A stretch of DNA of 64,000 bases from Acidobacteriota bacterium (GTDB taxonomy: Bacteria; Acidobacteriota; Vicinamibacteria; Vicinamibacterales; UBA2999): contig JAUSDY010000171.1 in the NCBI GenBank assembly GCA_030650395.1, positions 6,554-70,553 on the forward strand, written 5' to 3'. The notes beneath the pieces are model-generated. The model saw nothing but the letters and a program-made list of their open reading frames with translations, was not told where the DNA came from and ran no database searches. Both the position numbers and the translations under genes were made by a program. Positions 4,002 to 60,635 of this stretch are shown here, one piece after another. Each line of letters opens with the position of its first letter. Positions within the stretch are counted from its first letter, which is position 1.

Positions 4002-4067
4002 ATAACCAAAAACCAATAACAAAAAACCAAAGACTCTTTGGTTATTGGTAATTCGTTATTGGTTATT
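4001..4067. terminator. AT-rich hairpin between convergent csoR and the M49-like peptidase gene (AATAACCAA word family)
   Basis: aataaccaaaaaccaataacaaaaaaccaaag / ctttggttattggtaattcgttattggttatt are imperfectly complementary arms. The element overlaps both stop codons (TGA 3999-4001, TAA 4063-4065). Terminator function is inferred. Confidence 0.5.
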
Positions 4068-6521: not shown

Positions 6522-6579
6522 GGGCTTGAGGGCTCGAGGGCTTGGCGTTTTTTGCCTTTTGCCTTCTGCCTTCTGCCTT
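6522..6579. repeat. spacer built from GGGCTTGA octamers followed by a GCCTTNT heptamer array
   Basis: gggcttgagggctcgagggcttgg (6522-45), whose first 23 nt (6522-44) also occur at 38449-71. Then gcctttt gccttct gccttct gcctt (6554-78). This fills the queG-yqgE spacer. Confidence 0.85.
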
Positions 6580-7648: not shown

Positions 7649-7650
7649 AC

Positions 7651-7737
7651 TTGAAACTTAAAACTGAACTTAAAACTGAACTTCAAACTGAACTTCAAAC
7701 TGAAACTTTCAACTTACAACTTTCAACTTTCAACTTG
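7651..7737. repeat. one-armed tandem-word element (AAACTGAACTTN 12-mers then CTTTCAA heptamers)
   Basis: 4 x aaactgaactt(a/c) followed by ctttcaa units. It equals the right arm of the full palindrome at 46166-46318. It covers the acnA-queG spacer and the last acnA codons. Confidence 0.85.
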
Positions 7738-10482
7738 CTTCACCAACTGTCTCAGCACGTACGGCAGGATGCCGCCGTGTGAGAACGCGGTGAGCTCTTC
7801 CGGCGTGTCGATGCGGGCGAGCGCGGTGAAGGTCTTGACCGAGCCGTCCTCCGCCGTCGCCATCACCGCGATCTCGGCGCGCGCCTTGAGCGACGCACCC
7901 GCGCCGGCAAACGCAAACACCTCGCGGCCGGTGAGGCCGAGCGACGCGGCGCCCTGGCCGTCCTTGAACTGCAGCGGCAGCACGCCCATGTTGACGAGGT
8001 TGCTGCGGTGAATGCGCTCGTAGCTTTCCGCCATCACCACCTTCACGCCGAGCAGCATCGTGCCCTTGGCGGCCCAGTCGCGCGACGAGCCGGAGCCGTA
8101 CTCCTTGCCGGCGATCACCACGAGCGGCACTCCGGCCGACTGATAGCTCATGGCCGCGTCATAGATGGGCATCACGTCGCCGCCCGGAAGATATGCCGTC
8201 ACGCCGCCTTCCACGCCGGGGACCATCTGGTTCTTGATCCGCGTGTTGGCAAAGGTGCCGCGCATCATCACTTCGTGGTTGCCGCGCCGGGCGCCGTAGG
8301 AATTGAAGTCCTTCGGCTCCACGCCGTGCTCGATCAGGTACTTGCCGGCGGGGCTGGCGGCCTTGATGCCGCCGGCCGGCGAGATGTGATCGGTCGTGAT
8401 GCTGTCGCCGAGCAGCGCCAGCGCGCGCGCGCCGCGAATATCCGAGGCCGGCGCCGGCGTCATCGACAGGTTCTCGAGGAACGGCGGTTTGCGAATGTAG
8501 GTCGAGGTGTTGTCCCACGCAAAGCGATCGCCGACAGGCACCGGCAGCGTCTGCCACCGCACGTCGCCGTCGAACACGCTCGCATACTGCTGGCGATACG
8601 CCTCGGACGTGACGGCATGGAGCATCGCCGCCTGGATCTCTTTTTCCGTCGGCCACACATCCTTGAGATACACGGGCTTGCCTTCGATGCCGATGCCGAG
8701 CGGCTCGGTGGTGATGTCGATCGTCATCGATCCCGCCAGCGCATAGGCGACGACCAGCGGCGGTGACGCGAGGTAATTGGCGCGCACTTCCTGCTGGATG
8801 CGGCCTTCGAAGTTGCGGTTACCGCTCAGCACCGATGCCACTACCAGGCCCCGCTCCGCGATTTCAGCCGAGACCTCCTCGGGCAGCGGGCCGCTGTTGC
8901 CGATGCAGGTGGTGCACCCGTAGCCCACCAGATTGAAGCCGATCTGATCGAGATACGTGTCGAGGCCGGCCTTCTTCAAGTAATCGGTCACGACCTTCGA
9001 CCCCGGCGCCAGGCTGGTCTTGACCCACGGCTTGCGCGTCAGCCCGAGCTCGACCGCCTTCTTGGCGACAAGACCCGCGCCGATCATCACGCTCGGATTC
9101 GACGTGTTGGTGCAGCTGGTGATCGCGGCGATCACGACCGAACCATGTTCGAGCTGCGTCGCGGTGGCAACGGCTCCCTGCCCTGACCCTTCGACAGGCT
9201 CAGGGTCACCCCGAGCGGAGCCGAGGGGTGAGCGAGCTTCGGGGTTTTCCCCGAAGCGAGTCGAAGGCACGCCCTTCTTCAAGTCCGCCAGCGCGCCGGC
9301 GAACGATGCCTTGGCCTTGGTCAACGGGACGCGGTCCTGCGGGCGACGCGGGCCCGCGAGACTGGGCACCACGGTTCCGAGATCGAGCTCCACCGATTCG
9401 GTATACACCGCGTCGGGCGACTGGGCCGTCCTGAAGAGGCCCTGCGCCTTCGCGTAGCCTTCCACCAGCGCGATCTGCCGCTCGTCGCGCCCGGTCAGGC
9501 GCAGGTATTCGAGCGTCATGTCGTCGATCGGGAACATCGCGACGGTGGCGCCATACTCGGGGCACATGTTGCCGAGCGTCACGCGGTCGGCAATCGTGAG
9601 ATGCGCGAGGCCAGGCCCGTAGAACTCGACGAACTTTCCCACCACGCCGTGCTTGCGAAGCGCTTCGGTGATCGTCAGCACGAGGTCGGTGGCGGTGGCC
9701 CCTTCGGGCAGCTTACCCGTCAGGCGATAGCCCAGCACCAGAGGAATCAGCATCGAGCTCGGCTGGCCCAGCATCGCCGCTTCGGCCTCGATGCCACCCA
9801 CGCCCCATCCAACGACCCCAAGGCCATTGACCATCGTGGTGTGCGAGTCGGTGCCGAACACCGTGTCGGGATAGGCGACCGCCGTGCCGTTGACTTCGTC
9901 GCGACAGACGACGCGCGCCAGGTATTCGATGTTGACCTGGTGCACGATGCCGGTCTCGGGCGGCACGACGCGAAAGTTGCGGAACCCGGTCTGGCCCCAG
10001 CGCAGGAACACGTAGCGCTCCCGATTGCGGTGGTACTCGAGGCTCGCGTTCAGCTCGAGCGCGTTGCTGGTGCCGAAATGATCGACCTGCACCGAGTGAT
10101 CGATCACGAGCTCGACCGGCTGCAGGGGGTTGACCTTGTGCGGATCGCCGCCGAGGGCGACGATGCCGTCACGCATGGCGGCCAGATCGACCACACAAGG
10201 CACGCCGGTGAAATCCTGCAGCAGGACCCGGGCCGGCATGAACGACATTTCCTTTTCGCCGATCGTCTTCGGATCCCACGACGCCAGCGCCGTGATGTCG
10301 GCGGCTTTCACAAAGCCGTTGTCTTCACGCCGCAACAGGTTCTCGAGCAGGATCTTGAGCGAATACGGCAGCCGCGCCACGCGGGGAAACGCCTGTTCGA
10401 GTGCGGGCAGGCTGTAGATGCTGACGGTGTCGGTGCCGATGGATAACGACGTGCGGGTCTTGAAGCTATCGAGGCTGGACAT
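7723..10482 (-). CDS. acnA: aconitate hydratase A
   Basis: [13 protein letters not shown] and [12 protein letters not shown] Fe-S ligand motifs, full-length aconitase/IRP architecture. ATG 10482 is preceded by AGGAG; the upstream ORF extension to 10566 overlaps the neighbouring gene. Confidence 0.95.
9188..9267. repeat. compound palindromic element inside acnA coding sequence
   Basis: ccttcgacaggctcaggg + tcaccccgagc-gga-gccgaggggtga + gcgagc + ttcgggg-tttt-ccccgaa + gcgagtcgaagg. Translated in frame as ...[23 protein letters not shown]... Confidence 0.8.
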
Positions 10483-24587: not shown

Positions 24588-25523
24588 ATGACACGAATCC
24601 TTCGACTCGCCCATCGGGCGCGCTTCGCGACGACCCGATGGGCTCGCTCAGGACAGGTCGTTCTCGTGGTCGCGCTGCTGGCCTCAATTACGGCCTGCAG
24701 CAAGGGCGGAACCCCGACCTCACCCACGCCCCCGACACCGGATACACGCACGCAGGCCATTTTTTACACGGCGATCGGCGCCAGCGATGGCCTTGGGGTT
24801 GGCAGTTCCTCGGCTTGCTTTCTGTTCTCAGAATGCCCGGACGGAAAAGGTTACGTTCAGATTCTGCTGGCCCGGCTTCGCGACGGAGGCAGGACCGTCG
24901 GTCACAGCAACCTAAGCATTCCGGGCTCGGTTCTGAGCAAAGCGGTCTTTGACCTGGCCGCGTCGGTGGGGCGGCCTATTGATCAACTGGCCGGTAACTT
25001 CATCGAGCGCGAGGCGCCTTTTGTGCGTCCCGAAACCACGCATGTGACCATTTTCGCGGGCGGTAATGATGCCAACACCATCGCGTTTGCCGCGCGCTCG
25101 CGCGGTGGGTCGGATCCAACGGCGTATGTGAATGATCAAGTTCGTCAGTGGGGCACCGACCTCGAGGATCTGGTCGCCCGTATCCGCAGCCGTGCTCCCA
25201 ACGCGCGCATCGTCGCGCTCAACCTGCCGAACCTGGCGGCGTCGCCGTATCTTGCGGGGAACCCGCCCTCGGAAAAGAGCCTGATGCAGCGCGTCGCGGT
25301 CGGGCTCTCGGATCGCGTGAATGCCCTCACCTCGCGCAATGTGCTCGTCGTCGATCTGATGTGCGACGCGCGCCTCTATCTGTCGTCGAACTACGCCGCC
25401 GACGGCTTCCACCCCAACGACGGCGGCTACGCCGTCTTCGCCGAGCTGGCCTTGCCGGCGTTGCGGGACGGTACGAGCCGAGCGCCGTCAACCACCTGCG
25501 CTCAGCGAACCGTTTTCCCCTAA
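24588..25523 (+). CDS. SGNH/GDSL-family hydrolase lipoprotein
   Basis: Lipobox LLASITAC, block I AIGASDGLG, block III FAGGNDAN, block V DGFHPND. Confidence 0.75.
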   Translation: MTRILRLAHRARFATTRWARSGQVVLVVALLASITACSKGGTPTSPTPPTPDTRTQAIFYTAIGASDGLGVGSSSACFLFSECPDGKGYVQILLARLRDGGRTVGHSNLSIPGSVLSKAVFDLAASVGRPIDQLAGNFIEREAPFVRPETTHVTIFAGGNDANTIAFAARSRGGSDPTAYVNDQVRQWGTDLEDLVARIRSRAPNARIVALNLPNLAASPYLAGNPPSEKSLMQRVAVGLSDRVNALTSRNVLVVDLMCDARLYLSSNYAADGFHPNDGGYAVFAELALPALRDGTSRAPSTTCAQRTVFP

Positions 25524-25530
25524 ACACGCA

Positions 25531-25592
25531 CAGGAGATCAGGAGACCAGGAGTTGTTTTTCAAAAAACCACTCCTGAGCTCCTAGTCTCCTG
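25531..25592 (+). terminator. tandem-word hairpin after the SGNH hydrolase gene (CAGGAGNN octamers)
   Basis: caggagat caggagac caggagtt - gtttttcaaaaaacc - actcctga gctcctag tctcctg, followed by tttgg. Confidence 0.5.
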
Positions 25593-25689
25593 TTTGGTCG
25601 TTTGCCTTAGTGGGTGTACTTGAAATCTTGCACAAAATGCATGATTTCAATTTCACTTTGCAACTTTCGACCTAAATCGACAAGTGTCA

Positions 25690-25705
25690 TGGGTCAGATG
25701 TTGCA
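25690..25705 (+). promoter_or_regulatory. candidate sigma-54 (-24/-12) promoter upstream of glnN
   Basis: TGGgtcagatgTTGCA keeps the invariant GG-N10-GC spacing of TGGCAC-N5-TTGCA and lies about 76 nt upstream of the ATG. The surrounding 25600-25740 is unusually AT-rich, with TGCAC-AAAA-TGCAT at 25629-43. Confidence 0.3.
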
Positions 25706-25780
25706 AAGTGATGCGAGATCCGTGCATACTCGTGCATTCGGCCGCACCTTCCGCGGCCGGCATACAGGAGGGGCCGGTTT

Positions 25781-27958: not shown

Positions 27959-27974
27959 GGTCACAGGGGTCCTG

Positions 27975-28070
27975 GAAGGGCTTGGGGGCCTGGGGGCTCG
28001 AGGGCTTGGACGGTCAAGTCCTCAAGCCCTCAAGCCCTCAAGCCCTCTGCGGCCTCAAGCCCTCAAGCCC
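27975..28070. repeat. tandem-word composite palindrome (GGGCTTGR / CCTCAAGC octamers)
   Basis: gaagggcttgggggcctgggggctcgagggcttggac opposes gtcctcaagccctcaagccctcaagccct...cctcaagccctcaagccc. It fills the glnN-GT39 spacer up to 3 nt before ATG 28074. Confidence 0.85.
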
Positions 28071-28073
28071 GCC

Positions 28074-30293
28074 ATGCGCGCCCTGCCCGCCCTTGTCTTC
28101 GTCATCGCGTTTGTGGTCCGGCTTGTCCACATCTGGCAGATCAAGCCGTCGCCGTTTTTTGACGTCCTGCTCGGCGACGCGGGCGGCTACGACGAGTGGG
28201 CGCGGCGGCTGGCGGGCGGCGACTGGATCGGCAGCGACGTGTTCTACCAGGCCCCGCTCTATCCATACTTTCTCGGCGTTCTCTATAAGCTGTTCGGCCA
28301 CGATCTGCTGATCGTCCGCATCTGCCAGGCGGCGATCGGGTCGGCGTCGTGCGCGCTGCTCGCGCTCGCGGGCGGGCGGCTCTTCTCGCCGCGGGTCGGG
28401 CTCATTGCCGGCCTCGCGCTTGCGCTCTACGCGCCGGCGGTGTTCTTCGACGCGCTGCTCCAGAAGTCGGTGCTCGACATGTTCTTCGTCTGCCTCAGCA
28501 TCTGGCTGGTCTCGCGAATTCTTGCTGGCTCGTCGACGCGGGCGTCGTGGATCGCGCTCGGGCTCGCAATGGGTGCCCTCGCGCTCACACGGGAAAACGC
28601 ACTCAGCTTCATTGCGGTGATTGTTGTCTTCGCCGTCGTTCAGAAGGGTTCAGAAGGGTTCAGAGGGGTTCTGAAAGGTTCTGACGGGTTCGGAAAGGTT
28701 CGGAAAGGTTCGAACCCTTCAGAACCCTTCAGAACCCTTCAGAACCATTCAGAACCATTCAGAACCTTTCAGAACCTCGGATGGTTTGTGGTCGGCTTGG
28801 CCGTGGTGTTGCTACCGGTAGCGATCAGGAACTATTCGGTAGGTGGCGGGCTGTATCTAACGACGTCGCAGTTCGGATCGAACTTCTACATCGGCAACCA
28901 TGCCGGAGCCGATGGCACATACGCGTCGATCCGGTTTGGCCGCGGCGCGCCGGAGTTCGAGCGGCAGGATGCGACGGAGGTGGCCGAGCAGGCCGTCGGC
29001 CGCAGCCTCACGCCGTCGGAGGTCTCGGCCTACTGGACCGATCGCGCTCTCCTTTTCATCACGTCACAGCCTGCCGAGTGGATCGCGCTGACCGGACGCA
29101 AGATCAGGCTGCTCGTCAATCGCTCGGAGATGCTCGACACCGAAAGCCAGGAGAGTTACGCCGAGTGGTCGTGGCCGCTGCGGATCGGCGGTTGGATCGG
29201 GCATTTCGGCGTGCTGGTGCCGCTGGCGCTGCTTGGAGTGATGGTGACGTGGCCGGAACGGCGCCGCCTCTGGATCCTCTACGCGATGGCGATCGCCTAC
29301 GCGGCCAGCGTGGTGATGTTCTATGTGTTCGCGCGCTATCGCTATCCGCTGGTGCCATTCCTGCTGTTGTTTGCGGCAGCCGGTGTGGCGTTGCCCTTCG
29401 ACTCAACATTTCGCGAGTACCTCGCGAAATGTTTCGCTCAGGGTTCGCGTCGATGGCAACTGGCGGCAATTTCGATCGCTGTTACCATTTTTGCGAATTG
29501 GCCTGTGTTGTCATCGACGCTCATGATGGCCATCACCGAGAACAATCTCGGCACGGCGTTGCAGGACGCCAAACGCTACGACGAGGCCGTCGTCCATCAC
29601 GAGCGCGCGGTCGCCTTGCAGCCGGATTACGCGCCGGCGTACAACAACCTCGGGGCCGCGCTACGCGCCGCCGGCCGTCTCGACGAAGCGGTCGCGCAGT
29701 ATCAGAAGGCGCTCGCGCTCAAGCCCGACTTCGGCAACGCGAGTTACAACCTCGCCAACGCCCTGCTCGAGCGCGGCCAGGCCGGCGCGTCGGTCGACGA
29801 GTTTCGGAAGGCGATTCAATTGACGCCCGATTCCGTGCAGGCGCACAACAACCTCGGAATCGCGCTGGCGGCCAAAGGCGATGCGGCGGGCGCGATGGCC
29901 GAGTTCCGCGCCGCGATCGCCCTCGACGGCACCTCGGTGCAGGCCCATCGCAATCTCGGCAACATGCTGGTCGACCGCGGCGAGCGGGCCGAGGGCATGG
30001 CTCACCTCGAGCGCGCGGTGCAGGTCGCGCCGGGCGAAGCCGACGCGCTCTTCGACATCGGCAGCATCCTGCTGCAGGAGCAGGATTTCAAGGGCGCCGC
30101 CGGGCGATTTCAGGCGGCGCTGCAAATCAAGCCCGACTCGCCCGAGACGTTGAACAACCTCGGGATCGCGTTCGCCAATCAGGGCAAGATCGCCGACGCC
30201 CTCACCTACTTCGAGCGCGCACTCAGCTTGCGGCCCAACTTCAACGACGCTCGCGTGAATCGTGATCAGGCTCGCGCCGTCCTCAAGAAATAA
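28074..30293 (+). CDS. membrane glycosyltransferase (GT39/PMT-ArnT-like) fused to C-terminal TPR repeats
   Basis: Multi-TM N-terminal half with a typical start (VVRLVHIWQIKPSPFFDVLLGDAGGYDEWA). The C-terminal ~280 aa are consecutive TPR units (YNNLGAALRAAGRLDEAVAQYQKALALKPDF...). Confidence 0.8.
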   Translation: MRALPALVFVIAFVVRLVHIWQIKPSPFFDVLLGDAGGYDEWARRLAGGDWIGSDVFYQAPLYPYFLGVLYKLFGHDLLIVRICQAAIGSASCALLALAGGRLFSPRVGLIAGLALALYAPAVFFDALLQKSVLDMFFVCLSIWLVSRILAGSSTRASWIALGLAMGALALTRENALSFIAVIVVFAVVQKGSEGFRGVLKGSDGFGKVRKGSNPSEPFRTLQNHSEPFRTFQNLGWFVVGLAVVLLPVAIRNYSVGGGLYLTTSQFGSNFYIGNHAGADGTYASIRFGRGAPEFERQDATEVAEQAVGRSLTPSEVSAYWTDRALLFITSQPAEWIALTGRKIRLLVNRSEMLDTESQESYAEWSWPLRIGGWIGHFGVLVPLALLGVMVTWPERRRLWILYAMAIAYAASVVMFYVFARYRYPLVPFLLLFAAAGVALPFDSTFREYLAKCFAQGSRRWQLAAISIAVTIFANWPVLSSTLMMAITENNLGTALQDAKRYDEAVVHHERAVALQPDYAPAYNNLGAALRAAGRLDEAVAQYQKALALKPDFGNASYNLANALLERGQAGASVDEFRKAIQLTPDSVQAHNNLGIALAAKGDAAGAMAEFRAAIALDGTSVQAHRNLGNMLVDRGERAEGMAHLERAVQVAPGEADALFDIGSILLQEQDFKGAAGRFQAALQIKPDSPETLNNLGIAFANQGKIADALTYFERALSLRPNFNDARVNRDQARAVLKK
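28638..28777. repeat. 140-nt composite palindrome of 10-nt words inside the GT39/TPR coding sequence
   Basis: 7 x gttc(a/t/g)ga(a/g/c)(a/g)g, centre ggttcgaacc (28708-17), then 7 x c(c/a/t)ttcagaac. Translated as KGSEGFRGVLKGSDGFGKVRKGSNPSEPFRTLQNHSEPFRTFQN between two TM segments. Confidence 0.9.
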
Positions 30294-30423
30294 GGTGCGT
30301 ACAGTGCGTACAGTTCCAAGAGTGCGTACAGTGCACCGAGTGCCTAGGAGTGCCAAACACTTGGCACCCCTGGCACACGAGCACTCTTCGCACTTCAGGC
30401 ACGGTACGCACCGTACGCACCTT
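30292..30423. repeat. tandem-word composite palindrome (GTGCGTACA 9-mers) between convergent genes; possible bidirectional terminator
   Basis: aaggtgcgtacagtgcgtac...gtacgcaccgtacgcacctt. The arms consist of about 7 gtgcNNNNN / NNNNNgcac units each and start inside the TAA of the GT39 gene. Confidence 0.8.
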
Positions 30424-30429
30424 GTGCTA

Positions 30430-37243: not shown

Positions 37244-38581
37244 TTAGCGCGGAAAGCGTCCGAGCGCGACGAGCAATTCCAGGCGCGCTTGCCGCACCGC
37301 ATCCTCGCCCTGCGCGACGATGGTCTCGAGATCGCGCACCGAGCGTTGCGCATCGATCACCTCGATGTTGGTCGTGGACCCGGCATCGAAGGCGATGATC
37401 GTGATCTTCAAGACTTCGTTGGCGTGCTGTGCCGCCTGCCGCGCGCGCACCAGCGCGCGCTCCTGGGCCTCGACCGCCGCGCGCGCGACGCGCACTTCCG
37501 ACCGCGCCCGGATCTGCACCTGCTCCAGTGAGAACGACGACGCCTGCAAGCTCGCCTCGCGCTGGCGCCGCACCGCGCGGCGCGAGCCGGCGTCGTAGAG
37601 CGGCTGCGACACCTGGAACGACAGGCTCCAGCTGCGCGACGGCTGAAAGAGGCCCGACGGCGCGAGCAGCTGCGGGCCGAAGGTGACGGCCGCCGCCGGC
37701 CACCAGTCTTTCGAGCTGTCGTGAACGACCCGATCGCTCGCCTCGCGTTCGGCGGTGAACAGCTGCACGTCGGTTCGACCCGGCATCCATTCAGCCTCGG
37801 CAGTTTCAACCGGCACCTCGAAGGCCGGCTCGCCATTCACATCGACCGGCGCATTCGCGGCCAGCAGAACACCGAGCGCCTCTTGCGCGCGCCTGACGTT
37901 GAGGCGAAAGATTTCGACCAGCGCTTCGTTGCTCGCGAGGATCTGCGCCGACCGCAGCTCGTTCAACCGGCTGCCGACGCCGCCTTCACGCCGCCTGGTG
38001 TTGTAGTCGAGTTGTCCGCGCGCGGTCTGGATCGCGTTCACGCTCACCTCGACCTGCCGCTTCTGCGCGATCACGGCAAGATAGGCTGACGCGGTCGCGA
38101 CCGCGATTTGGCGGCGCGTCTCTGTGGTCGACAGGCGCGCAATCTCGACCTGGTCGAGCGCCTGCGCGCGTGCGGCCCACTGTGCGGCCGCGAGGATGGG
38201 CGCGGTGGCCGAGAGTCCGAACAGGGTCTGGTTCTGCGGCTGCACCGTTTCGCCGCCGAACGAGCGGCCGCTGTCGAGCGTGGTGTTGGTGATGTTGGCG
38301 CCGAGGCGCGGCATCACCGCCGCGCGGACCTGCTGCAGGATGGCTTCGGAGCGCAGGATGTTGGTCGAGGCAATCGCGATCGTCGGGTTCTTCTCCAACG
38401 CGCGCGCGATGGCCTCGTCGAACGTCACGGTTTCCACGGGTACCCCGAGGGCTTGAGGGCTCGAGGGCTTGAGCCTGCCCTGAGCGAAGGTGACTCCGCT
38501 TGCGGAGTCGGCTGAGTCGAAGGGGGCTTGAGAGCCCTGCGCCAACGCAGGCGTGGCGAACGACACCGCCAGCAACAACAT
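37244..38581 (-). CDS. alternative model: separately initiated TolC/OprM-like outer-membrane efflux protein
   Basis: In-frame ATG 38581 (GTG 38584) opens MLLLAVSFATPALAQG..., followed by two OMF repeat halves. This model is nested in the long ORF. Confidence 0.4.
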   Translation of the reverse strand: MLLLAVSFATPALAQGSQAPFDSADSASGVTFAQGRLKPSSPQALGVPVETVTFDEAIARALEKNPTIAIASTNILRSEAILQQVRAAVMPRLGANITNTTLDSGRSFGGETVQPQNQTLFGLSATAPILAAAQWAARAQALDQVEIARLSTTETRRQIAVATASAYLAVIAQKRQVEVSVNAIQTARGQLDYNTRRREGGVGSRLNELRSAQILASNEALVEIFRLNVRRAQEALGVLLAANAPVDVNGEPAFEVPVETAEAEWMPGRTDVQLFTAEREASDRVVHDSSKDWWPAAAVTFGPQLLAPSGLFQPSRSWSLSFQVSQPLYDAGSRRAVRRQREASLQASSFSLEQVQIRARSEVRVARAAVEAQERALVRARQAAQHANEVLKITIIAFDAGSTTNIEVIDAQRSVRDLETIVAQGEDAVRQARLELLVALGRFPR

Positions 38582-41500
38582 CACGGCACCAGCTGCCGCC
38601 GGTGCAGGCGAACCTGACGAACCCGAACGCCGTCCGCGTCCTGGCGCGATCGATCGAATCACGACGTAGAGCACCGGGATGAAGACGATCGACAGGAATG
38701 TCGAGGCCAACATGCCGCCGGCCACCGCGGTGCCGACCGAGTTGCGCGCCGCCGCGCCCGCACCGGTCGCCAGCGCCAGCGGTAGCACGCCGAGGACGAA
38801 GGCCAGCGACGTCATCAGGATCGGCCGCAACCGAATCCGCGCCGACTCGATCGCGGCGTCGACGATCGACAGCCCGCGCCCGCGCAGCTGCTCGGCAAAC
38901 TCGACGATCAGGATCGAGTTCTTCGCCGCCAGCCCGACGAGCAGCACCAGGCCGACCTGGCAGAACACGTCGTTGTTGAAGCCGCGCACCAGCTGCGCAG
39001 ACAGCGCCCCAAATACCGCCAGCGGCACGCCGAGCAGGATGATCAGCGGCAGGACGAACGACTCGTATTGCGCCGACAGCACCAGGTAGACGAGCAGCAG
39101 GCTCAGGCCGAAAATCAACCCGGCCTGGCCGCCGGCCCGGCGCTCCTCAAGCGATTGCCCGGCCCACGCGAAGTCAAACCCCGGCGGCAGATTCGCGCGC
39201 GCCAGGTCCTCCATCGCCTGCAGCGTCTGTCCCGAGCTCTGGCCGGGAGGCGGGTTGCCCGAGATCTCCGCCGACCGGAACAAATTGAAGTGGCTGATCA
39301 CCTGCGGCGCGGTCGTCTCGCGCAGGCGGACGACGCTGTCGAGCGGGATCATGTCGCCGCTCGACGCCCGCGCATACAGCTGCTTCAGGTCGGTCGGGCT
39401 GGCCCGGAACCGTTGATCCGCCTGCACGTAGACGCGGTAGGCGCGGTTGTTGAAATCGAAGTCGTTCACGTACTGCGAGCCCAGGAACACTTGCAGCGCA
39501 TCGGTCACCTCGCGCAGCGGCAGGCCCAGGCTGCGCGCCTTGTCGCGATCGATGTCCACGATCAATTGCGGATCGTCGGCACGGAAGCTGCTGAAGGCGC
39601 CCTGGACTTTTCCACTCTGATTGGCCGCCCCCATCAAGCCGAAGGTGGCGCCCGCCAGCGTGTTGATGTCGTTGGAGCCGGTTTGATCCAGCACTTCGAA
39701 CTGGAAGCCACCGAAGGCACCCACCCCCTGGATCGACGGCGGCGGGAACGCGACCACGATGGCGCCGGGAATCATGAAGAGCGGACCGCTCAAGCGCTGC
39801 AGGACCGCCGACAGCGATTGATCTGCATTGGGCCGCTCGGCATAGTCCTTCAGCCGGACGAAGATCATGCCGTTGTTCGGCGCCGCGCCGGAAAAGCTGA
39901 AGCCCATCACGGAAAACGCCGCGGCCACGTCCTTGTCGGCGTAGAGGATCTGCTCGGCCTTCTTGGCAATCTCCGTGGAGTATTCGAGCGACGCCCCGGC
40001 GGGCGCCTGCACGATCGCCATGAAAAACCCTTCGTCTTCCTGCGGCACGAACGACGAGGGCACCATCTGGAACACCGTCCACGTCGCCCACAGCCCGCCG
40101 GCAAACAGCAGCAGCATCGCGTATCGCAGCCGCAACGCCCCGCGCACGAGGCGGACGTAGCCGTTGGTCCCGGCATCGACGACGCGATTGAATCCGGTGA
40201 AGAAGCGGCCGTGCGTGTGCGACTCCTTGTCGAGCAGCAGCGCCGCCAGCGCGGGCGTCAGCGTCACGGCGTTGAACACCGACAACACCACCGAAAACGC
40301 GATGGTCAGCGAGAACTGCTGATACAAGCGCCCGGTCACGCCGGGGAAGAACGCCACGGGCACGAACACCGCCACCAGCACGATGCCAATCACGACCACC
40401 GCGCCAAACACTTCGCGCATCGCGTCAACAGCGGCCTGCCGCGCCGACTTGTGAAACTCGCGCATGTGCCGCTCGATGTTCTCGATCACCACAATCGCAT
40501 CGTCGACCACGATGCCGGTGGCCAGCACGATGCCGAACAGCGTCAGCGTGTTGATCGAGAAGTCGAACAGCTTGATGAAGGCGAACGTCCCGATCAGTGA
40601 CACCGGGATCGTGATGGCCGGAATGATCGTGCTCCGCCAGTTCTGCAGGAACAGGAACATCACCAGGATCACAAGGCCGATCGCTTCCGCGAGCGTCCAC
40701 AGCACTTCGACGATCGATTCGCGCACGACGACGACGTTGTCGAAGGCGACCTGCCACTCGAGGCCCGGCGGGAAGCTCAGCTTGAGCCGATCCATCTCGG
40801 CGACCACGCCTCTGAACACTTCGATCGCATTGGCCGAGGGCAGCAGCGAAATGCCGATGCCCTGGGCTTCGAGGCCGAGGAACCGCAGGTTGGACGAATA
40901 GGTTTCGGCGCCGAGCTCGACACGGCCGACGTTTTTCACGCGCACCAGCGCGCCGTCCTTGCCGGCCTTGACGACGACGTCCTCGAACTCGGGCGCCTCG
41001 GACAGACGGCCCATGGCGCGCACGCTGATGGTGTATTGCTGACCGACAGTAGCCGGCGCATCACCCAGCGCGCCCGCGGCCACCTGCACGTTCTGTTCGC
41101 GCAGCGCGCCCAGCACATCGGCCGCCGTGATGTTGTGGCCCGCCAGCTTCGACGGATCGAGCCAGAGCCGCATCGCGAACTTGCGCTCGCCGAACACGAT
41201 CACGTCGCCGACGCCGGGGACACGCTTGATCGCGTCGCGGATGTACAAGTCGATGTAGTTGCTGATGAACAGGCTCGAATAGCGGTTGTCCTTCGAAAAG
41301 AACCCGAGCCCGCCGATGAAGCCGCTAGCGACCTTGACGACCGAAATGCCGTTCTGGCGCACCTCCGCCGGCATGCGGCCGAGCGCCTGGTTGACGCGGT
41401 TCTGCACGTCGACGGCCGCGAGATCCTGATCGCGATCGACGTCGAACGTGACGGTGATCGTCGCAAAGCCGCTGTTGGTGCTGGACGAGGTCATGTAGCT

Positions 41501-41728
41501 CATGCCCTCGACGCCGTTGATGGCCTGCTCGAGCGGGGTGGTCACCGCGCTCTCGACGGCTTGCGCGTTGGCACCGGTATAGAACGCGGACACCGTGACC
41601 GCCGGCGGCGCCAGGTCCGGATAGCGGGCAATCGGCAGCGTCGGAATCGACACCGCGCCGGCGAGGATGATCAGCAGCGAGCAGACCGTTGAGAGGACGG
41701 GCCTGCGAATGAACACGTCGGCCATCAT
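37244..41728 (-). CDS. RND (AcrB/MexB-type) efflux permease continuing without a stop codon into a TolC/OprM-like outer-membrane factor (single 1494-codon ORF)
   Basis: The first ~1048 codons are typical HAE1 RND (MMADVFIRRPVLS...). Then come a G/S/P/A linker, a signal-like segment VMLLLAVSFATPALA-QG and ~430 codons of OMF repeats. No in-frame stop separates them. Confidence 0.8.
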   Translation of the reverse strand: MMADVFIRRPVLSTVCSLLIILAGAVSIPTLPIARYPDLAPPAVTVSAFYTGANAQAVESAVTTPLEQAINGVEGMSYMTSSSTNSGFATITVTFDVDRDQDLAAVDVQNRVNQALGRMPAEVRQNGISVVKVASGFIGGLGFFSKDNRYSSLFISNYIDLYIRDAIKRVPGVGDVIVFGERKFAMRLWLDPSKLAGHNITAADVLGALREQNVQVAAGALGDAPATVGQQYTISVRAMGRLSEAPEFEDVVVKAGKDGALVRVKNVGRVELGAETYSSNLRFLGLEAQGIGISLLPSANAIEVFRGVVAEMDRLKLSFPPGLEWQVAFDNVVVVRESIVEVLWTLAEAIGLVILVMFLFLQNWRSTIIPAITIPVSLIGTFAFIKLFDFSINTLTLFGIVLATGIVVDDAIVVIENIERHMREFHKSARQAAVDAMREVFGAVVVIGIVLVAVFVPVAFFPGVTGRLYQQFSLTIAFSVVLSVFNAVTLTPALAALLLDKESHTHGRFFTGFNRVVDAGTNGYVRLVRGALRLRYAMLLLFAGGLWATWTVFQMVPSSFVPQEDEGFFMAIVQAPAGASLEYSTEIAKKAEQILYADKDVAAAFSVMGFSFSGAAPNNGMIFVRLKDYAERPNADQSLSAVLQRLSGPLFMIPGAIVVAFPPPSIQGVGAFGGFQFEVLDQTGSNDINTLAGATFGLMGAANQSGKVQGAFSSFRADDPQLIVDIDRDKARSLGLPLREVTDALQVFLGSQYVNDFDFNNRAYRVYVQADQRFRASPTDLKQLYARASSGDMIPLDSVVRLRETTAPQVISHFNLFRSAEISGNPPPGQSSGQTLQAMEDLARANLPPGFDFAWAGQSLEERRAGGQAGLIFGLSLLLVYLVLSAQYESFVLPLIILLGVPLAVFGALSAQLVRGFNNDVFCQVGLVLLVGLAAKNSILIVEFAEQLRGRGLSIVDAAIESARIRLRPILMTSLAFVLGVLPLALATGAGAAARNSVGTAVAGGMLASTFLSIVFIPVLYVVIRSIAPGRGRRSGSSGSPAPAAAGAVMLLLAVSFATPALAQGSQAPFDSADSASGVTFAQGRLKPSSPQALGVPVETVTFDEAIARALEKNPTIAIASTNILRSEAILQQVRAAVMPRLGANITNTTLDSGRSFGGETVQPQNQTLFGLSATAPILAAAQWAARAQALDQVEIARLSTTETRRQIAVATASAYLAVIAQKRQVEVSVNAIQTARGQLDYNTRRREGGVGSRLNELRSAQILASNEALVEIFRLNVRRAQEALGVLLAANAPVDVNGEPAFEVPVETAEAEWMPGRTDVQLFTAEREASDRVVHDSSKDWWPAAAVTFGPQLLAPSGLFQPSRSWSLSFQVSQPLYDAGSRRAVRRQREASLQASSFSLEQVQIRARSEVRVARAAVEAQERALVRARQAAQHANEVLKITIIAFDAGSTTNIEVIDAQRSVRDLETIVAQGEDAVRQARLELLVALGRFPR
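38445..38537. repeat. compound element (GGGCTTGA words + flank-conserved/variable-stem unit) inside the OMF coding region
   Basis: gagggcttgagggctcgagggcttgag + ccctgagcgaagg-t-gactccg-cttg-cggagtc-ggct-gagtcgaaggg + ggcttgagagccc. Translated as SQAPFDSADSASGVTFAQGRLKPSSPQALG. Confidence 0.85.
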
Positions 41729-43006: not shown

Positions 43007-43870
43007 ATGGGTGAGATGCAGGACGTACTGAAGGGTTTCAGCCGCGGGATGTACAGCAACTGGATGTGGCACAAGCCGCTGCAGCTGCTCGTCGATGCCG
43101 GCGAAGGCCTGCAGCTCGCTCTCGGCTCCAATGTGTTCTCCCCATCAGTGCTCGCCGTCACCCACGGCCACTCCGATCACGTCATGGGGATCCCGGGCCT
43201 GATCGCATCCAGGCGCTTCGGCAAGGGCGCGGTCGACAAGCCGCTGACCGTCTACTATCCGGAACAATCGCGCGGCGTGCAGGGCGTTCGCGAGCTGCTC
43301 GGCATTTCCTACGCGGGCGTGGTGTTCCCCGTGACCTGGACGGCGCTCACGGCCGGCGCGATCGTGCCGCTGGGAAAGACGCGAAGCCTGCATGCCTTTG
43401 CGGTGCGGCACACGGCCGCTGAACCAGCGCTTGGCTATAAAGTGGTCGAGACCAGACGGCGGCTCAAGCCGGAGTTTGCCGCCTTGACGCAGGCAGAGGT
43501 CGAGGCCAGTGCGCGCCAAGGCCGGCGCGACGAGCTGCTCGAGGAGATGGCGCACGTCACGTTCGCGCATTCCGGGGATGCCATGCCGATCGACCCCGCG
43601 CTCGTGGCCGGCGCCGATCTGCTGGTGCATGACGCGACCTTTCTGAGCGAGCCCGATCGGCGCGAGCCGATTCACGCCACCACCGAAGAAGCCCTCGAGG
43701 TCGCGCGCGCGGCGGCCGTCAAGACGTTGGTGCTGTACCACCTCTCGATTCGCTACGATCGGGCCACGGCCCTTCCCATCCTTCGCGCGCAAGTCGCTGC
43801 CAGCGGTTTCACAGGCGAGTGCCTGCTGCTCGATGAGGGCGAATTCATCGAAATAACCAAGAACCAATAA
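43007..43870 (+). CDS. MBL-fold metallo-hydrolase (RNase Z/ElaC-like)
   Basis: THGHSDH (HxHxDH) motif and later His/Asp ligands (HDATF, YHLS). 287 aa. Confidence 0.7.
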   Translation: MGEMQDVLKGFSRGMYSNWMWHKPLQLLVDAGEGLQLALGSNVFSPSVLAVTHGHSDHVMGIPGLIASRRFGKGAVDKPLTVYYPEQSRGVQGVRELLGISYAGVVFPVTWTALTAGAIVPLGKTRSLHAFAVRHTAAEPALGYKVVETRRRLKPEFAALTQAEVEASARQGRRDELLEEMAHVTFAHSGDAMPIDPALVAGADLLVHDATFLSEPDRREPIHATTEEALEVARAAAVKTLVLYHLSIRYDRATALPILRAQVAASGFTGECLLLDEGEFIEITKNQ

Positions 43871-43935
43871 CCAATAACCAAAACGGAGAGCCGCCTTTCG
43901 TTATTTCTTTATTCGTTATTTGTTATTCTTCTTAG
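43850..43935. repeat. AATAACCAA-word element (A-rich arm then T-rich arm)
   Basis: gaaataaccaagaaccaataaccaataaccaaaacg ... cgttatttctttattcgttatttgttattcttctt. The left arm encodes the MBL tail ITKNQ and its stop. Arm complementarity is only partial. Confidence 0.75.
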
Positions 43936-43938
43936 ATC

Positions 43939-44232
43939 GTGTCGACCCTTAGCCCCCAGGATGTCAAGCGGATCGCGGAGCTGGCGCGCCTCGAGCTGAG
44001 CGCCGCCGAGCTCGATCTGTTCACGCGGCAGCTCGGCGACATCCTCGCCTACGTCGAGCAGATCCGCACGCTCGACACCACCGGCGTGCCGCCGACATCG
44101 TCCGTGCTCAATCGTCCGGTGGATCGCGCCGACGAGCCGCGGCCGTCGCTGTCGCGCGCCGACCTGCTGCGCAACGCCCCCGATGCCGCGCCGGAAGCGG
44201 GCCTCTTCAAAGTGCCCCGAGTGATCGGATGA
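43939..44232 (+). CDS. gatC: Asp/Glu-tRNA(Asn/Gln) amidotransferase subunit C
   Basis: [35 protein letters not shown], a typical GatC. GTG start. Confidence 0.9.
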
Positions 44233-45742: not shown

Positions 45743-46186
45743 TGGCGATTGTCCTTCCGCTCTGCGCCGCATACGCGCTGTGGTGCCTGTTCACGATGCC
45801 GGCAGGACCGATCACCACGCCAGACTCGGTGCACTATCTCAATGCCTCGCCGATCGTTCCGCTCGGCTACCCGCTCTTCCTGAACCTCGTCGGCGCGCGC
45901 GGCGCGATGTTCGCGCAGCCGATGCTGTTTGCGGCGGCGCTCGCCGTGCTCGGGCGCGAAACCATTCGCCTTGTGGACGGTCGATCGCCTGCGGCACCCC
46001 GACACCGCTGCCCCGCTCACGCAGTTCATCGCGAGCAATCGGCCGCTGCCGTTCGAAAAGGAGGCGTTCCGCGTCGATCCCGACGTCACGATCGCCTTCA
46101 CCGCCGACGGCTTATGGCCGGCGATCACCACGGCAGCGCTGTATGGTGTCTGGGCGGTTTGGGTTAAGTTGAAAGTTGAAAGTTGA
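45742..46186 (+). pseudogene. frameshifted small membrane-protein gene (possible remnant)
   Basis: ATG 45742 (TGATG overlap with gatA) opens a high-GC3 hydrophobic frame up to about 45955. High GC3 then continues in the +1 frame (KPFALWTVDRL...WAVWVKLKVES, stop 46184-86). The original frame becomes Arg-rich and low-GC3. Confidence 0.4.
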
Positions 46187-46318
46187 AAGTTGAGAGTTTC
46201 AGTTGCCAGTTCAGTTGGAAGTGTGAAGTCTTACGTTCGCGTGGGCGAGTCGAACTTTGAACTCAAAACTGAACTTGAAACTGAAACTTCCAACTTTCAA
46301 CTTTCAACTTTCAACTTG
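46166..46318. repeat. 153-nt tandem-word composite palindrome (GTTGAAA heptamers + AGTTCAGTT words)
   Basis: gttgaaa x3-4 + gagtttcagttgccagttcagttggaagt opposes aactgaacttgaaactgaaacttcc + aactttc x3-4, with a ~40-nt central loop. Confidence 0.9.
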
Positions 46319-46323
46319 ACCGG

Positions 46324-47535
46324 TCACTGAGCGGTCATGTTGGGACGACCCTGTCGGAGAACGTACTTCTGTATTTTCCCGGTGGCGGTCTTCGGTAACT
46401 CCGCGATCGGGGTAAAGCCGTGCGGCACCTTGAAGTGGGCCATGTTCGCCCGGCAAAACTCGCGCAATGCCTCGGCGGTAGCCGACTGGCCGCTCTTGAA
46501 CACCACGAACGCGTGCGGCGCCTCGCCCCATTTGTCGTGGGGCAGCCCGACGACGGCGGCTTCCTGGATGGCGTCGTGGCGAAGCAGCATGGCCTCGACT
46601 TCGACCGATGAAATGTTCTCGCCGCCGCTGATAATCACGTCCTTCAGCCGATCGGTGATCTGGACGTAGCCGTCGGGGTGCACGACCGCGGCATCGCCGG
46701 TGTGAAACCAGCCGTCGCCCATGCATTTCGCGGTGGCCTCGGGGTCGTTGTAGTACCCCGCCATGATGACGTTGCCGCGGGCGATGATTTCTCCCGCGGA
46801 CGTGCCGTCCGCGGGCACCTCTCGGCCGTTTTCGTCCACCACCCGCAGCTCGCCGGAGGTGATGAGCTCGACGCCCTGGCGAGATTTGATGCGGGCGCGG
46901 TCCGACGCGCCGAGCGCGTCGTGTTCGGGCAGCGGCTCGCAGATGCTGATGGCCGGGGCGGTTTCGGTGAGGCCGTAGATCTGCGTCACGGTCCACCCCA
47001 TCTCGCCCTCGATGCGCTCGATCGTCACGGCCGCGGGCGGCGCGCCGGCCGTCATCACGCCCACGCCGCGCGGCAGCCCGGCCTTCACCTCCGCGGGCGC
47101 GCTGGCCAGCATGATCAGCACGGTGGGCGCCGCGCACATCCGTGTGATGCGCTCGTCCTTCACCAGCCGGAACACGGTCGCGGCCTCGAGCTTGGATCCG
47201 GGGCCCCCACCACGCGTACTTTGCGTGGTGGGGTGGAGGCACACGTGCGTCGCGCCGGCGGCCGTCACCGTCCACGTGAACGTCCAGCCGTTGGCGTGGA
47301 ACATCGGCAGCGTCCACAGGTAGCGATCGCGCGGCGTCATCGGCGTGTGCACCAGCATGCCGACGCAGTTCATCCACGCGTTGCGATGCGTGATCATCAC
47401 GCCCTTGGGACGCGACGTGGTGCCGCTGGTGTAGTTGATCGTCAGCAGATCGCGCTCGCCGATCGCGGGCGGCGTGAAGCGCGCCGTCGCCGCGGCGACG
47501 AGCGTTTCGTAATCGAGCCATCCTTCTCTCGACAA
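46324..47535 (-). CDS. acyl-CoA synthetase (AMP-binding enzyme), C-terminal 403-codon fragment
   Basis: Contains INYTSGTTSRPKGVMITH and the remaining AMP-binding/C-terminal domain motifs. Separated from its N-terminal part by an in-frame TGA. The only start available is TTG 47535. Confidence 0.65.
   Translation of the reverse strand: MSREGWLDYETLVAAATARFTPPAIGERDLLTINYTSGTTSRPKGVMITHRNAWMNCVGMLVHTPMTPRDRYLWTLPMFHANGWTFTWTVTAAGATHVCLHPTTQSTRGGGPGSKLEAATVFRLVKDERITRMCAAPTVLIMLASAPAEVKAGLPRGVGVMTAGAPPAAVTIERIEGEMGWTVTQIYGLTETAPAISICEPLPEHDALGASDRARIKSRQGVELITSGELRVVDENGREVPADGTSAGEIIARGNVIMAGYYNDPEATAKCMGDGWFHTGDAAVVHPDGYVQITDRLKDVIISGGENISSVEVEAMLLRHDAIQEAAVVGLPHDKWGEAPHAFVVFKSGQSATAEALREFCRANMAHFKVPHGFTPIAELPKTATGKIQKYVLRQGRPNMTAQ
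47198..47238. repeat. 41-nt CCACCACGCG hairpin element inside the acyl-CoA synthetase fragment
   Basis: ccggggc-ccccaccacgc-gtacttt-gcgtggtgggg-tggag, 39/41 identical to the intergenic copy at 54794-54834. Translated as HPTTQSTRGGGPGS. Confidence 0.9.
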
Positions 47536-47555
47536 ACCTCAAGGTTTGTCGCCAC
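47530..47555 (-). repeat. GTGG-headed stem-loop (REP-like) that interrupts the acyl-CoA synthetase reading frame
   Basis: Minus strand reads gtgg-cgacaaacc-ttga-ggtttgtcg. The loop TGA (47539-41) is the in-frame stop. A 21-nt tandem duplication (47551-71 / 47572-92) is adjacent. Confidence 0.9.
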
Positions 47556-47979
47556 CTCGGTCGAGCGCGACGCCACCTCCGTCGAGCGCGACGAAGTGCG
47601 TGACATCAGGCAGGCTGGCGCGGATGGAATCCACCGCGTCGAGGTAGTCGGCCGACGCGCACACCACCTTCGCGCCGCTGTGTTGGATCAGGTATTTGAA
47701 GTCGTCCGCAATCAACCGGAAGTTGAGCGGCACCAGCACGGCGCCCATCTGGGGCACCGCATAGAACGCCTCGAGCTGCGCGTGCGAGTTCGGCGCGATG
47801 TAAGCGACCCGGTCGCCGGGGCCGACGCCCATTTCGTGCAGGACGCTCGACCACCGATCGCAGCGATCGCCGAACGCCTCGTAGGTCCAGCGCTCCGCGC
47901 CATCAACGACCGCTTCGCGATTGCCGTGAAGCCGCCGCGCACGGCGCATGAATTCCAGTGGGGTCAGCGCCACTTCCAT
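47539..47979 (-). CDS. acyl-CoA synthetase (AMP-binding enzyme), N-terminal 146-codon fragment
   Basis: MEVALTPLEFMRRARRLHGNREAVVDG...VAYIAPNSHAQLEAFYAVPQMGAVLVPLNFRL is a typical N-terminus of medium-chain acyl-CoA ligases. It ends at the TGA in the hairpin loop. Confidence 0.65.
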   Translation of the reverse strand: MEVALTPLEFMRRARRLHGNREAVVDGAERWTYEAFGDRCDRWSSVLHEMGVGPGDRVAYIAPNSHAQLEAFYAVPQMGAVLVPLNFRLIADDFKYLIQHSGAKVVCASADYLDAVDSIRASLPDVTHFVALDGGGVALDRGGDKP

Positions 47980-47997
47980 AGTGCGCGGGATTGTAGT

Positions 47998-48116
47998 TGA
48001 GTTCAGAGTGCAGCGTTAAGAGTTAAGAGTTAAGAGTTAAGAGTTAAGAGTTAAGAGTTAAGAAAAATGCCTCGAGTTCGGAGTTCTTAACTCTAAACTC
48101 TTAACGCTGAACTCAG
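47998..48116. repeat. tandem-word composite palindrome (7 x GTTAAGA heptamers)
   Basis: tgagttcag(agtgcag)cgttaagag pairs with ctcttaacgctgaactca. The left arm carries 7 GTTAAGA units (48015-63) against about 2 in the right arm. Confidence 0.9.
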
Positions 48117-48457
48117 ACAGCCGCAGGTCGGTGCCGCATCAGCGCCCAGATCATCAGGCCGAGAAGAAGGAACGGGATGGCCGGAACGAGCAGCGCCAGT
48201 AATGCGGCGATCGCGCCGACGACGACCACGGCGGCTACGACGACCAGGAGGATTGGGATGGCGGCAGCGCCCGCAGCGAGGCCGATGGCTCCAAATGTGA
48301 GAGCCACCGGAATCATCAGCACCTTGAACAGGAGGCGGAACGGCAGCAAGACCGTCCAGAACGCCATTCGGATGATGAAGAAGACGAGGCCGATCAGCGA
48401 GAAGAAGGCCAGCCCGGCAGCGGCGAGCAGGCCCGCGAACGCGAGGAATCCGATCAT
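48113..48457 (-). CDS. small integral membrane protein (3-4 TM helices)
   Basis: The ORF is almost entirely hydrophobic (MIGFLAFAGLLAAAGLAFFSLIGLVFFII...). ATG 48457 was chosen because the longer ORF overlaps the upstream gene. Confidence 0.5.
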   Translation of the reverse strand: MIGFLAFAGLLAAAGLAFFSLIGLVFFIIRMAFWTVLLPFRLLFKVLMIPVALTFGAIGLAAGAAAIPILLVVVAAVVVVGAIAALLALLVPAIPFLLLGLMIWALMRHRPAAV

Positions 48458-60608: not shown

Positions 60609-60609
60609 C

Positions 60610-60635
60610 AGGCGGGTCTAAAGACCCGCCTCTAC
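60610..60635 (-). repeat. GTAG-headed stem-loop (REP-like) immediately after hup; possible terminator
   Basis: aggcgggtc-taaa-gacccgcct-ctac (inverted orientation), followed 7 nt later by ttttt. Confidence 0.85.

Follow-up and report, generated by a model that had tools for sequence, protein, structure and literature searches.

An in-frame, hairpin-forming array of 10-nt words in a variable loop of a membrane glycosyltransferase gene from Acidobacteriota

The DNA analyzed here, a 64,000-nucleotide stretch of contig JAUSDY010000171.1 from an Acidobacteriota bacterium of the order Vicinamibacterales (hereafter the window), contains a gene for a membrane glycosyltransferase in which a palindromic block of tandem 10-nt words is open in the reading frame of the gene (Table 1). 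Comparison with orthologous genes and with the many similar hairpins of the window leads us to propose that the block is a DNA-level hairpin array that probably lengthens and shortens through slippage within a permissive loop, and that selection on the host protein keeps it translatable.

Results

The host gene and the anatomy of the block

The host protein matches Pfam PMT_2 over residues 59-191 (E 5e-13; score 49.9 bits, with the cut-off at 26.1), the profile match ending at position 133 of 160, right at the start of the repeat, and many TPR families match the protein C-terminal to this domain as one long TPR array. An earlier note on this DNA, made from the sequence alone, had spoken of a GT39/TPR protein; the TPR repeats and a GT-C-type PMT_2 domain are indeed there, but the GT39 label is loose, PMT (PF02366, the GT39 family proper) being absent among the Pfam matches of the protein. 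Its homologs number 4248, with relatives named as proteins of Acidobacteriota or Vicinamibacterales metagenome-assembled genomes, and the orthologs share the gene order GSIII - host gene - convergent CarboxypepD_reg receptor.

The block (28638-28776, 139 nt) consists of seven GTTCNGANNG words, a GGTTCGAACC center and six CNTTCAGAAC words, that is, of thirteen 10-nt words and the center. The earlier note had described a 140-nt palindrome of fourteen such words; the palindromic word build and the seven left-arm units were as it said, whereas the center had been placed one base too far to the right (28708-28717) and the supposed seventh right-arm unit proved to be a hybrid with the center. The left-arm units are GTTCAGAAGG (twice), GTTCAGAGGG, GTTCTGAAAG, GTTCTGACGG and GTTCGGAAAG (twice), and the right-arm units are CCTTCAGAAC (three times), CATTCAGAAC (twice) and CTTTCAGAAC. 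Tandem Repeats Finder (TRF) scores over the block were 85, 94 and 109, the last for the right arm with 96% matches, and a 20-nt period was detected as well; an inverted-repeat search returned arms of 65 nt with 83% complementarity and a loop of 0 nt. Adjacent words are often alike to the base. The variants found in one arm are not mirrored by those in the other, which indicates that each arm grew independently.

Table 1. Features of the block, its host gene, related word hairpins of the window and cassettes of the same loop in relatives (window coordinates)
Feature	Position	Strand	Evidence or context
Host gene, 739-aa PMT_2 (GT-C type) membrane glycosyltransferase with C-terminal TPR array	28074-30293	+	Open reading frame (ORF), Pfam
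Left arm, seven 10-nt words GTTC(A/T/G)GA(A/G/C)(A/G)G	28638-28707	+	TRF period 10, 7.4 copies, score 85
Center GGTTCGAACC, dyad between 28711 and 28712	28707-28716	+	Inverted-repeat search, 0-nt loop
Right arm, six 10-nt words C(C/A/T)TTCAGAAC (28716-28775) and terminal C	28716-28776	+	TRF period 10, 6.5 copies
Upstream word hairpin, GGGCTTGG.. / TCAAGCCC words, period 8	27959-28073		Between GSIII and host gene
Downstream word hairpin, GTGCGTACA / GTACGCACC and GTGCC / GGCAC words	30294-30429		Between convergent gene ends
Intergenic word palindrome, AAGTTGA / TCAACTT words	46162-46321		Between convergent genes; minimum free energy (MFE) -102.7 for 46134-46348
T1 cassette, GTTCAGAAGG-type words			Period 10, palindromic
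T2 cassette, GGCACCNNA words			Period 9, one arm only, no hairpin
T3 cassette, GTTCTACG / CGTAGAAC words			Period 11-12, palindromic
T4 cassette, GTAGAGGCGGGACTGCAGTCCCGCC...GGCGGGTCTAAAGACCCGCCTCTAC			GTAG-tagged doublet like repetitive extragenic palindromic (REP) sequences, GTAG...CTAC in L044

Folding of the mRNA, which the earlier note had advised, gave -89.5 kcal/mol for a 156-nt region, whereas its dinucleotide shuffles averaged -47.4 ± 4.0 (z -10.65) and 0 of 200 reached the same stability; with DNA parameters the block folds to -49 kcal/mol (z -9.75). The opposite strand reaches -90.9 kcal/mol, and since both strands are equally foldable, G·U asymmetry cannot tell an RNA-level from a DNA-level structure. 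An Rfam scan had a tRNA as its sole match and no family matching the insert. An intrinsic (Rho-independent) terminator, for which a G+C-rich stem and a U-tract would be expected, was considered and rejected: a scan for terminators and promoters detected no site at the insert, the stem has 49% G+C, and its tail, CCTCGGATGG, is not a U-tract.

As the earlier note stated, no stop codon interrupts the gene's frame within the block, and the peptide encoded there is VQKGSEGFRGVLKGSDGFGKVRKGSNPSEPFRTLQNHSEPFRTFQN. Its G+C content is 49%, compared with 65% for the window, and G+C at codon positions 1, 2 and 3 is 0.53, 0.45 and 0.49 in the insert versus 0.66, 0.45 and 0.84 in the rest of the gene. This flat profile implies that the repeat was not shaped by codon usage, in agreement with the earlier proposal that it is maintained at the nucleic acid level and not by selection on codons.

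The encoded segment lies between two predicted membrane helices (residues 176-189 and 227-257), again as proposed. In an AlphaFold2 model built with 62 homologs, which has a mean predicted local distance difference test score (pLDDT) of 85, residues 190-230 are mostly coil with a pLDDT of 53-58, compared with about 92 on either side. No invariant residue falls in the insert loop; the invariant columns are all in other loops (G34, D35, Y39, D40 and W42; F125, D126, Q130 and K131; R173, E174 and N175; R252 and N253 through E296). GT-C enzymes have a conserved acidic first loop that faces outward, and counting helices from it we infer that the insert loop faces the cytoplasm, a placement consistent with the pattern of invariant loops and with the positive charges (an Arg-rich ancestral loop and a net positive insert). 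In the model, the insert is a low-confidence coil that joins the two membrane helices, on the face away from the invariant residues. A sequence search of the PDB with the membrane half returned no match, and a structure search with the whole model gave matches dominated by the TPR half.

The array is derived and varies in length among orthologs

In an alignment of 120 homologs, the segment between the LTRENA and PV..RN motifs is highly variable in length. Orthologs of about 50% identity have a constant segment of 50 residues and no repeat, so that the repeat-free state is ancestral and the array derived. The earlier note had named this comparison as a check, and had held that the same peptide encoded by non-repetitive DNA in orthologs would speak against its view; the relatives that share the peptide use the same repetitive DNA.

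The same T1 word is anchored at the same host codons (..GTC followed by GTTCAGAAGG..) in six independent assemblies of related Vicinamibacterales, namely the window, JGI L032, ENA L033, NCBI L034, Logan L035 and Logan L048, in which the LTRENA-to-RN segment measures 249, 270, 180, 210, 210 and 150 nt, respectively. Among the five T1 relatives, length differences come in steps of 30 nt, equal to three words or ten codons, and the window is offset from them by 9 nt via a 1-nt register shift at the center of its array. The L048 and L034 loci, whose proteins share 94% identity outside the loop, are exactly six words (60 nt) apart in length. These lengths show that the array gains and loses words at the DNA level, presumably by local duplication and loss inside each arm. 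Pairwise identities were used for inference instead of a neighbor-joining tree, the internal branches of which were short.

Short-read assemblers can mis-build palindromes, such that the word count of any single contig could be in error. That the block as a whole is a collapsed or chimeric repeat is nevertheless hardly credible, because the T1 array stands at the same codon, in frame, in six assemblies from different pipelines, and a comparable in-frame palindrome of 165 nt lies inside a 2.6-Mb contig (L014). Scanning metagenomes for the pattern TCGTTCAGAANGGTTCAGAA yielded six matches, all of them unrelated and due to chance, and neither an ortholog nor a strain variant nor any conspecific contig.

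The frame is conserved and stop codons are avoided

Every readable intact segment is in frame (39/39 loci, across species); 27 of these loci came from tblastn on genomes, a search that would still catch a frameshifted copy. As a control, the hairpins in both flanking intergenic spacers of the same loci have lengths that leave 0, 1 or 2 when divided by 3. The perfect complement of GGTTCAGAAG is CTTCTGAACC, which includes TGA, and at a 10-nt period such a TGA would be in frame every third word. Among the 58 words of nine coding copies, the center base of TTCNGA is A in 42, G in 11, C in 1 and T in 4, and there is no in-frame TGA in any of the nine. Stops per frame number 0/1/1 on the coding strand and 3/3/3 on the opposite strand. 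The palindrome is interrupted by an A·A mismatch exactly where TGA would arise, and this break is a mark left by purifying selection on translation. The earlier view that the repeat merely happens to stay open is thus contradicted twice, by the frame of the 39 loci and by the imperfection of the palindrome at the would-be TGA.

Cassettes turn over in the loop

At least four kinds of cassette (T1-T4, Table 1) occupy the same loop in closer relatives, and orthologs that are 91-95% identical outside the loop carry different ones: P0033 has T1', P0074 T2, P0079 T4 and P0115 a minimal T1'. Paralogy was considered as the cause of differing cassettes in near-identical proteins and rejected, every locus being syntenic. 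In other clades, hairpins built from other words stand at the same codon (L014, a T3 cassette, -114.7 kcal/mol; L008, -47.3 kcal/mol). At the DNA level, the replaced stretch comprises the cassette and about 15-25 nt on each side. The flanking intergenic hairpins likewise change words among these close relatives. In L042, L043, L044 and L047 (91-95% identical glycosyltransferase), the upstream spacers, from the GSIII stop to the glycosyltransferase start, are 84-160 nt long, carry wholly different word hairpins and have folds to -120.9 kcal/mol. Turnover is therefore not peculiar to the coding loop. Old alleles could have been exchanged by recombination, the cassettes could have been replaced repeatedly, or both may have happened.

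T4 is clearly a dispersed cassette, since its 20-mer GGCGGGTCTAAAGACCCGCC is an exact match to an intergenic hairpin at window 60611-60630. This GTAG/CTAC-tagged, REP-like hairpin (GGCGGGTCTAAAGACCCGCCTCTAC, 60605-60637) follows a small gene and lies upstream of a tRNA (60679-60752) at a distance of about 40 nt; in L044 (1455-1500), the same 20-mer is in frame in the glycosyltransferase loop and encodes ..KAGLKTRLYG..

As to T1, L047 has a perfect 16-nt palindrome, GAGGTTCC-GGAACCTC, in a loop of ancestral length, and in its relative L042 the word of L047 is expanded to four 10-nt copies. Moreover, the minimal T1 loop of P0014 (VQKGSERFRTVRNA) resembles the repeat-free loops WQHGTDRFAMILKSA and WQHGADRIARIPKSA (z 6.2-6.6 versus shuffles), which are in turn similar to ancestral loops. 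This evidence, in which the peptides compared are short, favors the view that T1 grew from local codons over foreign insertion.

Word hairpins are a genome-wide class

About twenty arrays of 7-12-nt words occur in the window, many of them paired as hairpins and most of them located after genes or between convergent genes. Word hairpins of this kind occupy about half of the intergenic regions. Examples are found at 3969-4107, 25511-25738, 27959-28073, 30294-30429, 43818-43969, 46134-46348 (-102.7 kcal/mol), 47972-48133 and 63669-63804, and the earlier observation that the coding block has the same build as such intergenic palindromes holds, for instance, for the one at 46162-46321. In related genomes, arrays of this type are likewise present at syntenic positions.

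Hairpins of this kind flank the host gene on both sides. The upstream spacer (115 nt, MFE -72.1) includes a TRF array of 7 copies at 28014-28070, and orthologous upstream spacers have other words and other lengths. The downstream hairpin (136 nt, MFE -81.1) is 87% identical to its counterpart in L032 (3821-3954) and 92% identical to that in L016 (6215-6362). Identity to the window at four-fold sites of the host gene is 0.62 in L032 and 0.48-0.51 in L034/L035, where about 0.39 is expected from composition. This non-coding element thus appears to be strongly constrained next to a gene that is at or near four-fold saturation.

The same words turn up again at different loci, and some hairpins have homologous copies elsewhere in the window. 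The segment 7676-7737 (within 7612-7771) is a right-arm copy of the palindrome at 46162-46321, matching 46258-46318 at 56 of 61 bases in the same irregular word order, and further homologous pairs are 48033-48114 with 63722-63789 and 4000-4070 with 43858-43937. A shared irregular word order indicates that at least some hairpin families are dispersed and not purely local.

Word arrays were also seen at other genes of the window. The QueG gene (6578-7648, minus strand) contains a one-armed array of four GAAGGCA words of period 7 (7387-7414), which is translated in frame as ..DEGIRQKAEGKTG.. within the DUF1730 region and has a small hairpin after it. In a minus-strand gene at 37244-41728, an AcrB-type transporter and an outer-membrane factor (OEP) are fused in a single ORF of 1494 residues, and in the linker an in-frame TCAAGCCC array (38447-38473, period 8), encoding GRLKPSSPQALG, comes after an apparent signal peptide of the OEP. 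A GTGCCTAA-type array of period 9 (52212-52265) makes up the first ~50 residues of the longest XseA ORF (52116-53606); given that the Pfam match starts from residue 55, this array would either extend the protein at its N terminus or serve as a 5' leader. On the minus strand, a gene for an acyl-CoA synthetase (AMP-binding) is split into 46324-47535 and 47539-47979, with profile positions 4-133 in the N-terminal part and 141-384 in the C-terminal part; the junction (47480-47640) has a 21-nt tandem duplication (VALDGGG/VALDRGG) and then a perfect 22-nt palindrome, CGACAAACCTTGAGGTTTGTCG, with an in-frame TGA in its loop, and this hairpin may have broken or split the gene. Downstream of the ThrRS gene (60889-62823), two arrays or hairpins, one of AATAACG-type and one of GAGTTAA / TCTGAAC words, lie between short genes at 63396-63804; in other bacteria, the region downstream of thrS harbors regulatory RNA structures.

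Discussion

We consider it reasonably probable that the block is a word hairpin at the DNA level, that slippage in a permissive loop makes it longer or shorter, and that selection on the host protein preserves its translatability. It belongs to a class of hairpin-forming short-word arrays that occupy unconstrained DNA across these Vicinamibacterales genomes, namely about half of the intergenic regions in the window and a few permissive coding linkers. The array probably grew out of a short local palindrome like the 16-nt one of L047. At the level of DNA, slippage inside each arm, together with fold-back, would then add or remove words, with the 10-nt period and the hairpin potential persisting. 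At the level of protein, a filter would remove every array whose net length is not divisible by 3 and would keep the word stop-free in all three coding-strand frames, a requirement that would force the A·A mismatch at the center of every word pair. The array would be read through into a disordered linker of about 45 residues, rich in Lys, Arg, Gly and Ser.

Several of our observations do not sit easily with this proposal. GTTCAGAAGG is identical in all five lineages, also in those whose four-fold sites are near saturation (0.48-0.51 against about 0.39), and the T1 word stays AT-rich in a genome with G+C near 0.85 at third codon positions; passive tolerance alone is thus insufficient as an explanation. 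Intergenic hairpins at syntenic positions retain 87-92% identity in comparisons in which four-fold sites retain about 62% or less, which suggests that the class is constrained in its own right and that the coding copy may also have a function. In addition, close relatives have unrelated cassettes in this loop, one of them a dispersed REP-like element, implying that insertion or recombination also acts here, and the argument for a local origin depends on short peptides. Conservation of the coding word could possibly have a trivial cause, namely that each base of a period-10 array is read in all three frames, so that three residues of each repeat are altered once a change has spread along the array. 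Class-wide conservation combined with AT-richness is in our opinion the most interesting lead, and one that passive tolerance leaves unexplained.

Three other explanations remain, and we rank a function of the hairpin above a mobile origin and a mobile origin above a phase switch. If the hairpin, as mRNA or as DNA, were itself selected, with the peptide as a by-product, it might pause ribosomes between the two membrane helices, act as a site of processing, stability or termination, or bind a word-specific protein. An AT-rich word conserved past synonymous saturation would agree with such a role, as would the 87-92% conservation of the intergenic members and the retention of hairpin potential with different words at the same codon in L014 and L008. 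However, many orthologs, even close ones (L002, L047 and P0014-like), have little or no hairpin and yet an intact gene, T2 cassettes are one-armed and hairpin-free, the two strands fold alike and so bear no G·U signature of a sense RNA, and the insert has neither a U-tract, nor a terminator consensus, nor an Rfam match; the word conservation could moreover stem from the three-frame reading of each base. On balance we regard a selected structure as unlikely at this site. Somewhat less likely still is that a foreign mobile palindrome, similar to MITEs (miniature transposable elements with inverted repeats), to the REP doublets known as REPINs or to Rickettsia palindromic elements (RPEs), was inserted in the ancestor of the clade and later trimmed to frame. 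The GTAG-tagged doublet in the same loop of sister lineages, with its 20-mer shared with window 60611-60630, and the dispersed homologous copies of other word hairpins make this conceivable, and related arrays do exist elsewhere: L001 has a period-10 GGTTCAGAAC array at the stop codon of an FKBP gene, fragment P0121 ends in ..EPFRTLQNPSEPFRTFQN, and the window is enriched in the GGTTCAG core, with 16 matches where 6.1 would be expected. What tells against it is that the 64 kb hold no second copy of the element, no target-site duplication and no transposase or REP-associated tyrosine transposase (RAYT) gene, that an exhaustive peptide search gave no bacterial enzyme family bearing the element, and that minimal versions fit the ancestral loop length and resemble repeat-free loops.

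That search, made with phmmer against 1.84 billion representatives, returned 30 low-complexity proteins with 10-residue periods and is uninformative on dispersal within the lineage; a word-index protein search with the same peptide gave one weak match, a 76-aa fragment, and missed the source protein itself. Some of the phmmer matches (P0123, P0124, P0128, P0149 and P0151) have long runs of 10-residue repeats such as NRSEPFRTVP, which back-translates to a GAACCGTTCC-like 10-nt word and indicates that similar read-through period-10 GTTC/GAAC arrays exist elsewhere.

A phase-variation switch, in which gain or loss of a single 10-nt word would toggle a surface-glycosylation enzyme within a population, had been raised in the earlier note. 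Glycosyltransferase genes are classic targets of such switches (contingency loci), the 10-nt unit is not divisible by 3, and the word number does differ between close relatives. Against these attractions stand the lack of any out-of-frame allele among the 39 intact loci, the differences among L032-L035 and L048 that are all multiples of 30 nt, and sister cassettes with periods of 9 and 12 nt, which are unable to shift the frame. The proposed switch consequently finds no support across species, and we deem it quite improbable.

A bolder view, which we find rather doubtful but perhaps worth keeping in mind, is that there exists in Vicinamibacterales an undescribed class of self-expanding word hairpins, with 7-12-nt words, a limited lineage-wide vocabulary and a presence in most intergenic regions, in which the coding copy is functional, as a structural or regulatory hairpin that has to remain translatable, and not a passenger. 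If this were true, the AT-richness and the conservation beyond saturation would point to word-specific machinery or function. Our literature search found no description of word-built palindromes in Acidobacteriota.

Returning to the slippage array under protein-level selection, its interest lies in the two layers of selection acting on one stretch of DNA, where a codon-incompatible repeat sits inside an essential-looking membrane enzyme and the protein-level filter can be read in the sequence, as lengths in multiples of 3 only and as a palindrome broken at the would-be stop. The findings bear on the birth of repeats, on the way in which new disordered linkers reshape proteins, and on gene punctuation in Acidobacteriota, and they single out an abundant, little-studied lineage from soil for its wealth of word-built hairpins, seemingly more conserved than neutral sites. 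They also carry a warning for annotation, as such inserts and their intergenic relatives yield odd peptides and spurious ORFs.

Comparison with known systems

Among known repeats, PARCELs (palindromic amphipathic repeat coding elements), as outlined in PMC2996958, are likewise intragenic tandem repeats of palindromic DNA, spread horizontally and selected as protein modules; by that outline they differ from the window block, which has a period out of step with codons and an opposite strand closed by stops. With contingency loci the block shares a tandem unit that is not a multiple of 3, in a glycosyltransferase gene, and a unit number that varies between relatives. It differs from them in having no out-of-frame alleles at the cross-species loci, a long 10-nt unit, a palindromic build and frame-neutral periods in sister cassettes.

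REPs and REPINs are GTAG-/CGTC-tagged palindromes (PMC3733652, PMC3116915); REPs can lie inside ORFs, where clusters encode 43-82 residues (PMC3733652). The word hairpins resemble them as short hairpin repeats that are chiefly extragenic, downstream of genes or between convergent genes, and occasionally in ORFs, and in the sister lineages L044-L046 the loop itself houses a genuine REP-like doublet with GTAG tags. A REP unit, however, is an imperfect palindrome of about 20-40 nt, whereas the window element measures 139 nt, has word periodicity and lacks a conserved GTAG or CGTC tag. The window does read CGTC directly 5' of the array, at 28634-28637; with AGTC, TGTC or GTTC in its place in relatives, this is simply a Val codon. 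No RAYT (Y1 transposase) was found among the 34 window proteins scanned.

RPEs (Ogata et al. 2000, as recounted in PMC10969869) are palindromes inserted in frame in many genes. The window block is like them in being a palindrome of roughly 100-150 bp in frame in a functional, conserved gene, with flanks that align with orthologs in the same frame, and, going by that account, in encoding an extra peptide where the fold tolerates it, here a loop predicted to be coil. According to the same account, RPEs are near-identical dispersed copies in many unrelated genes. For the window block, no second full copy has so far been found, and the exhaustive phmmer search met it in no unrelated gene, only in low-complexity repeat proteins; it further differs in its 10-nt tandem words, its word-wise changes in length, its possible origin from local codons and its Acidobacteriota host. 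Set apart from REPs by unit size and tag, and from RPEs by the absence of copies in unrelated genes in that search, the block nonetheless behaves like the cases known from both, as a tolerated and presumably translated palindrome in a permissive region.

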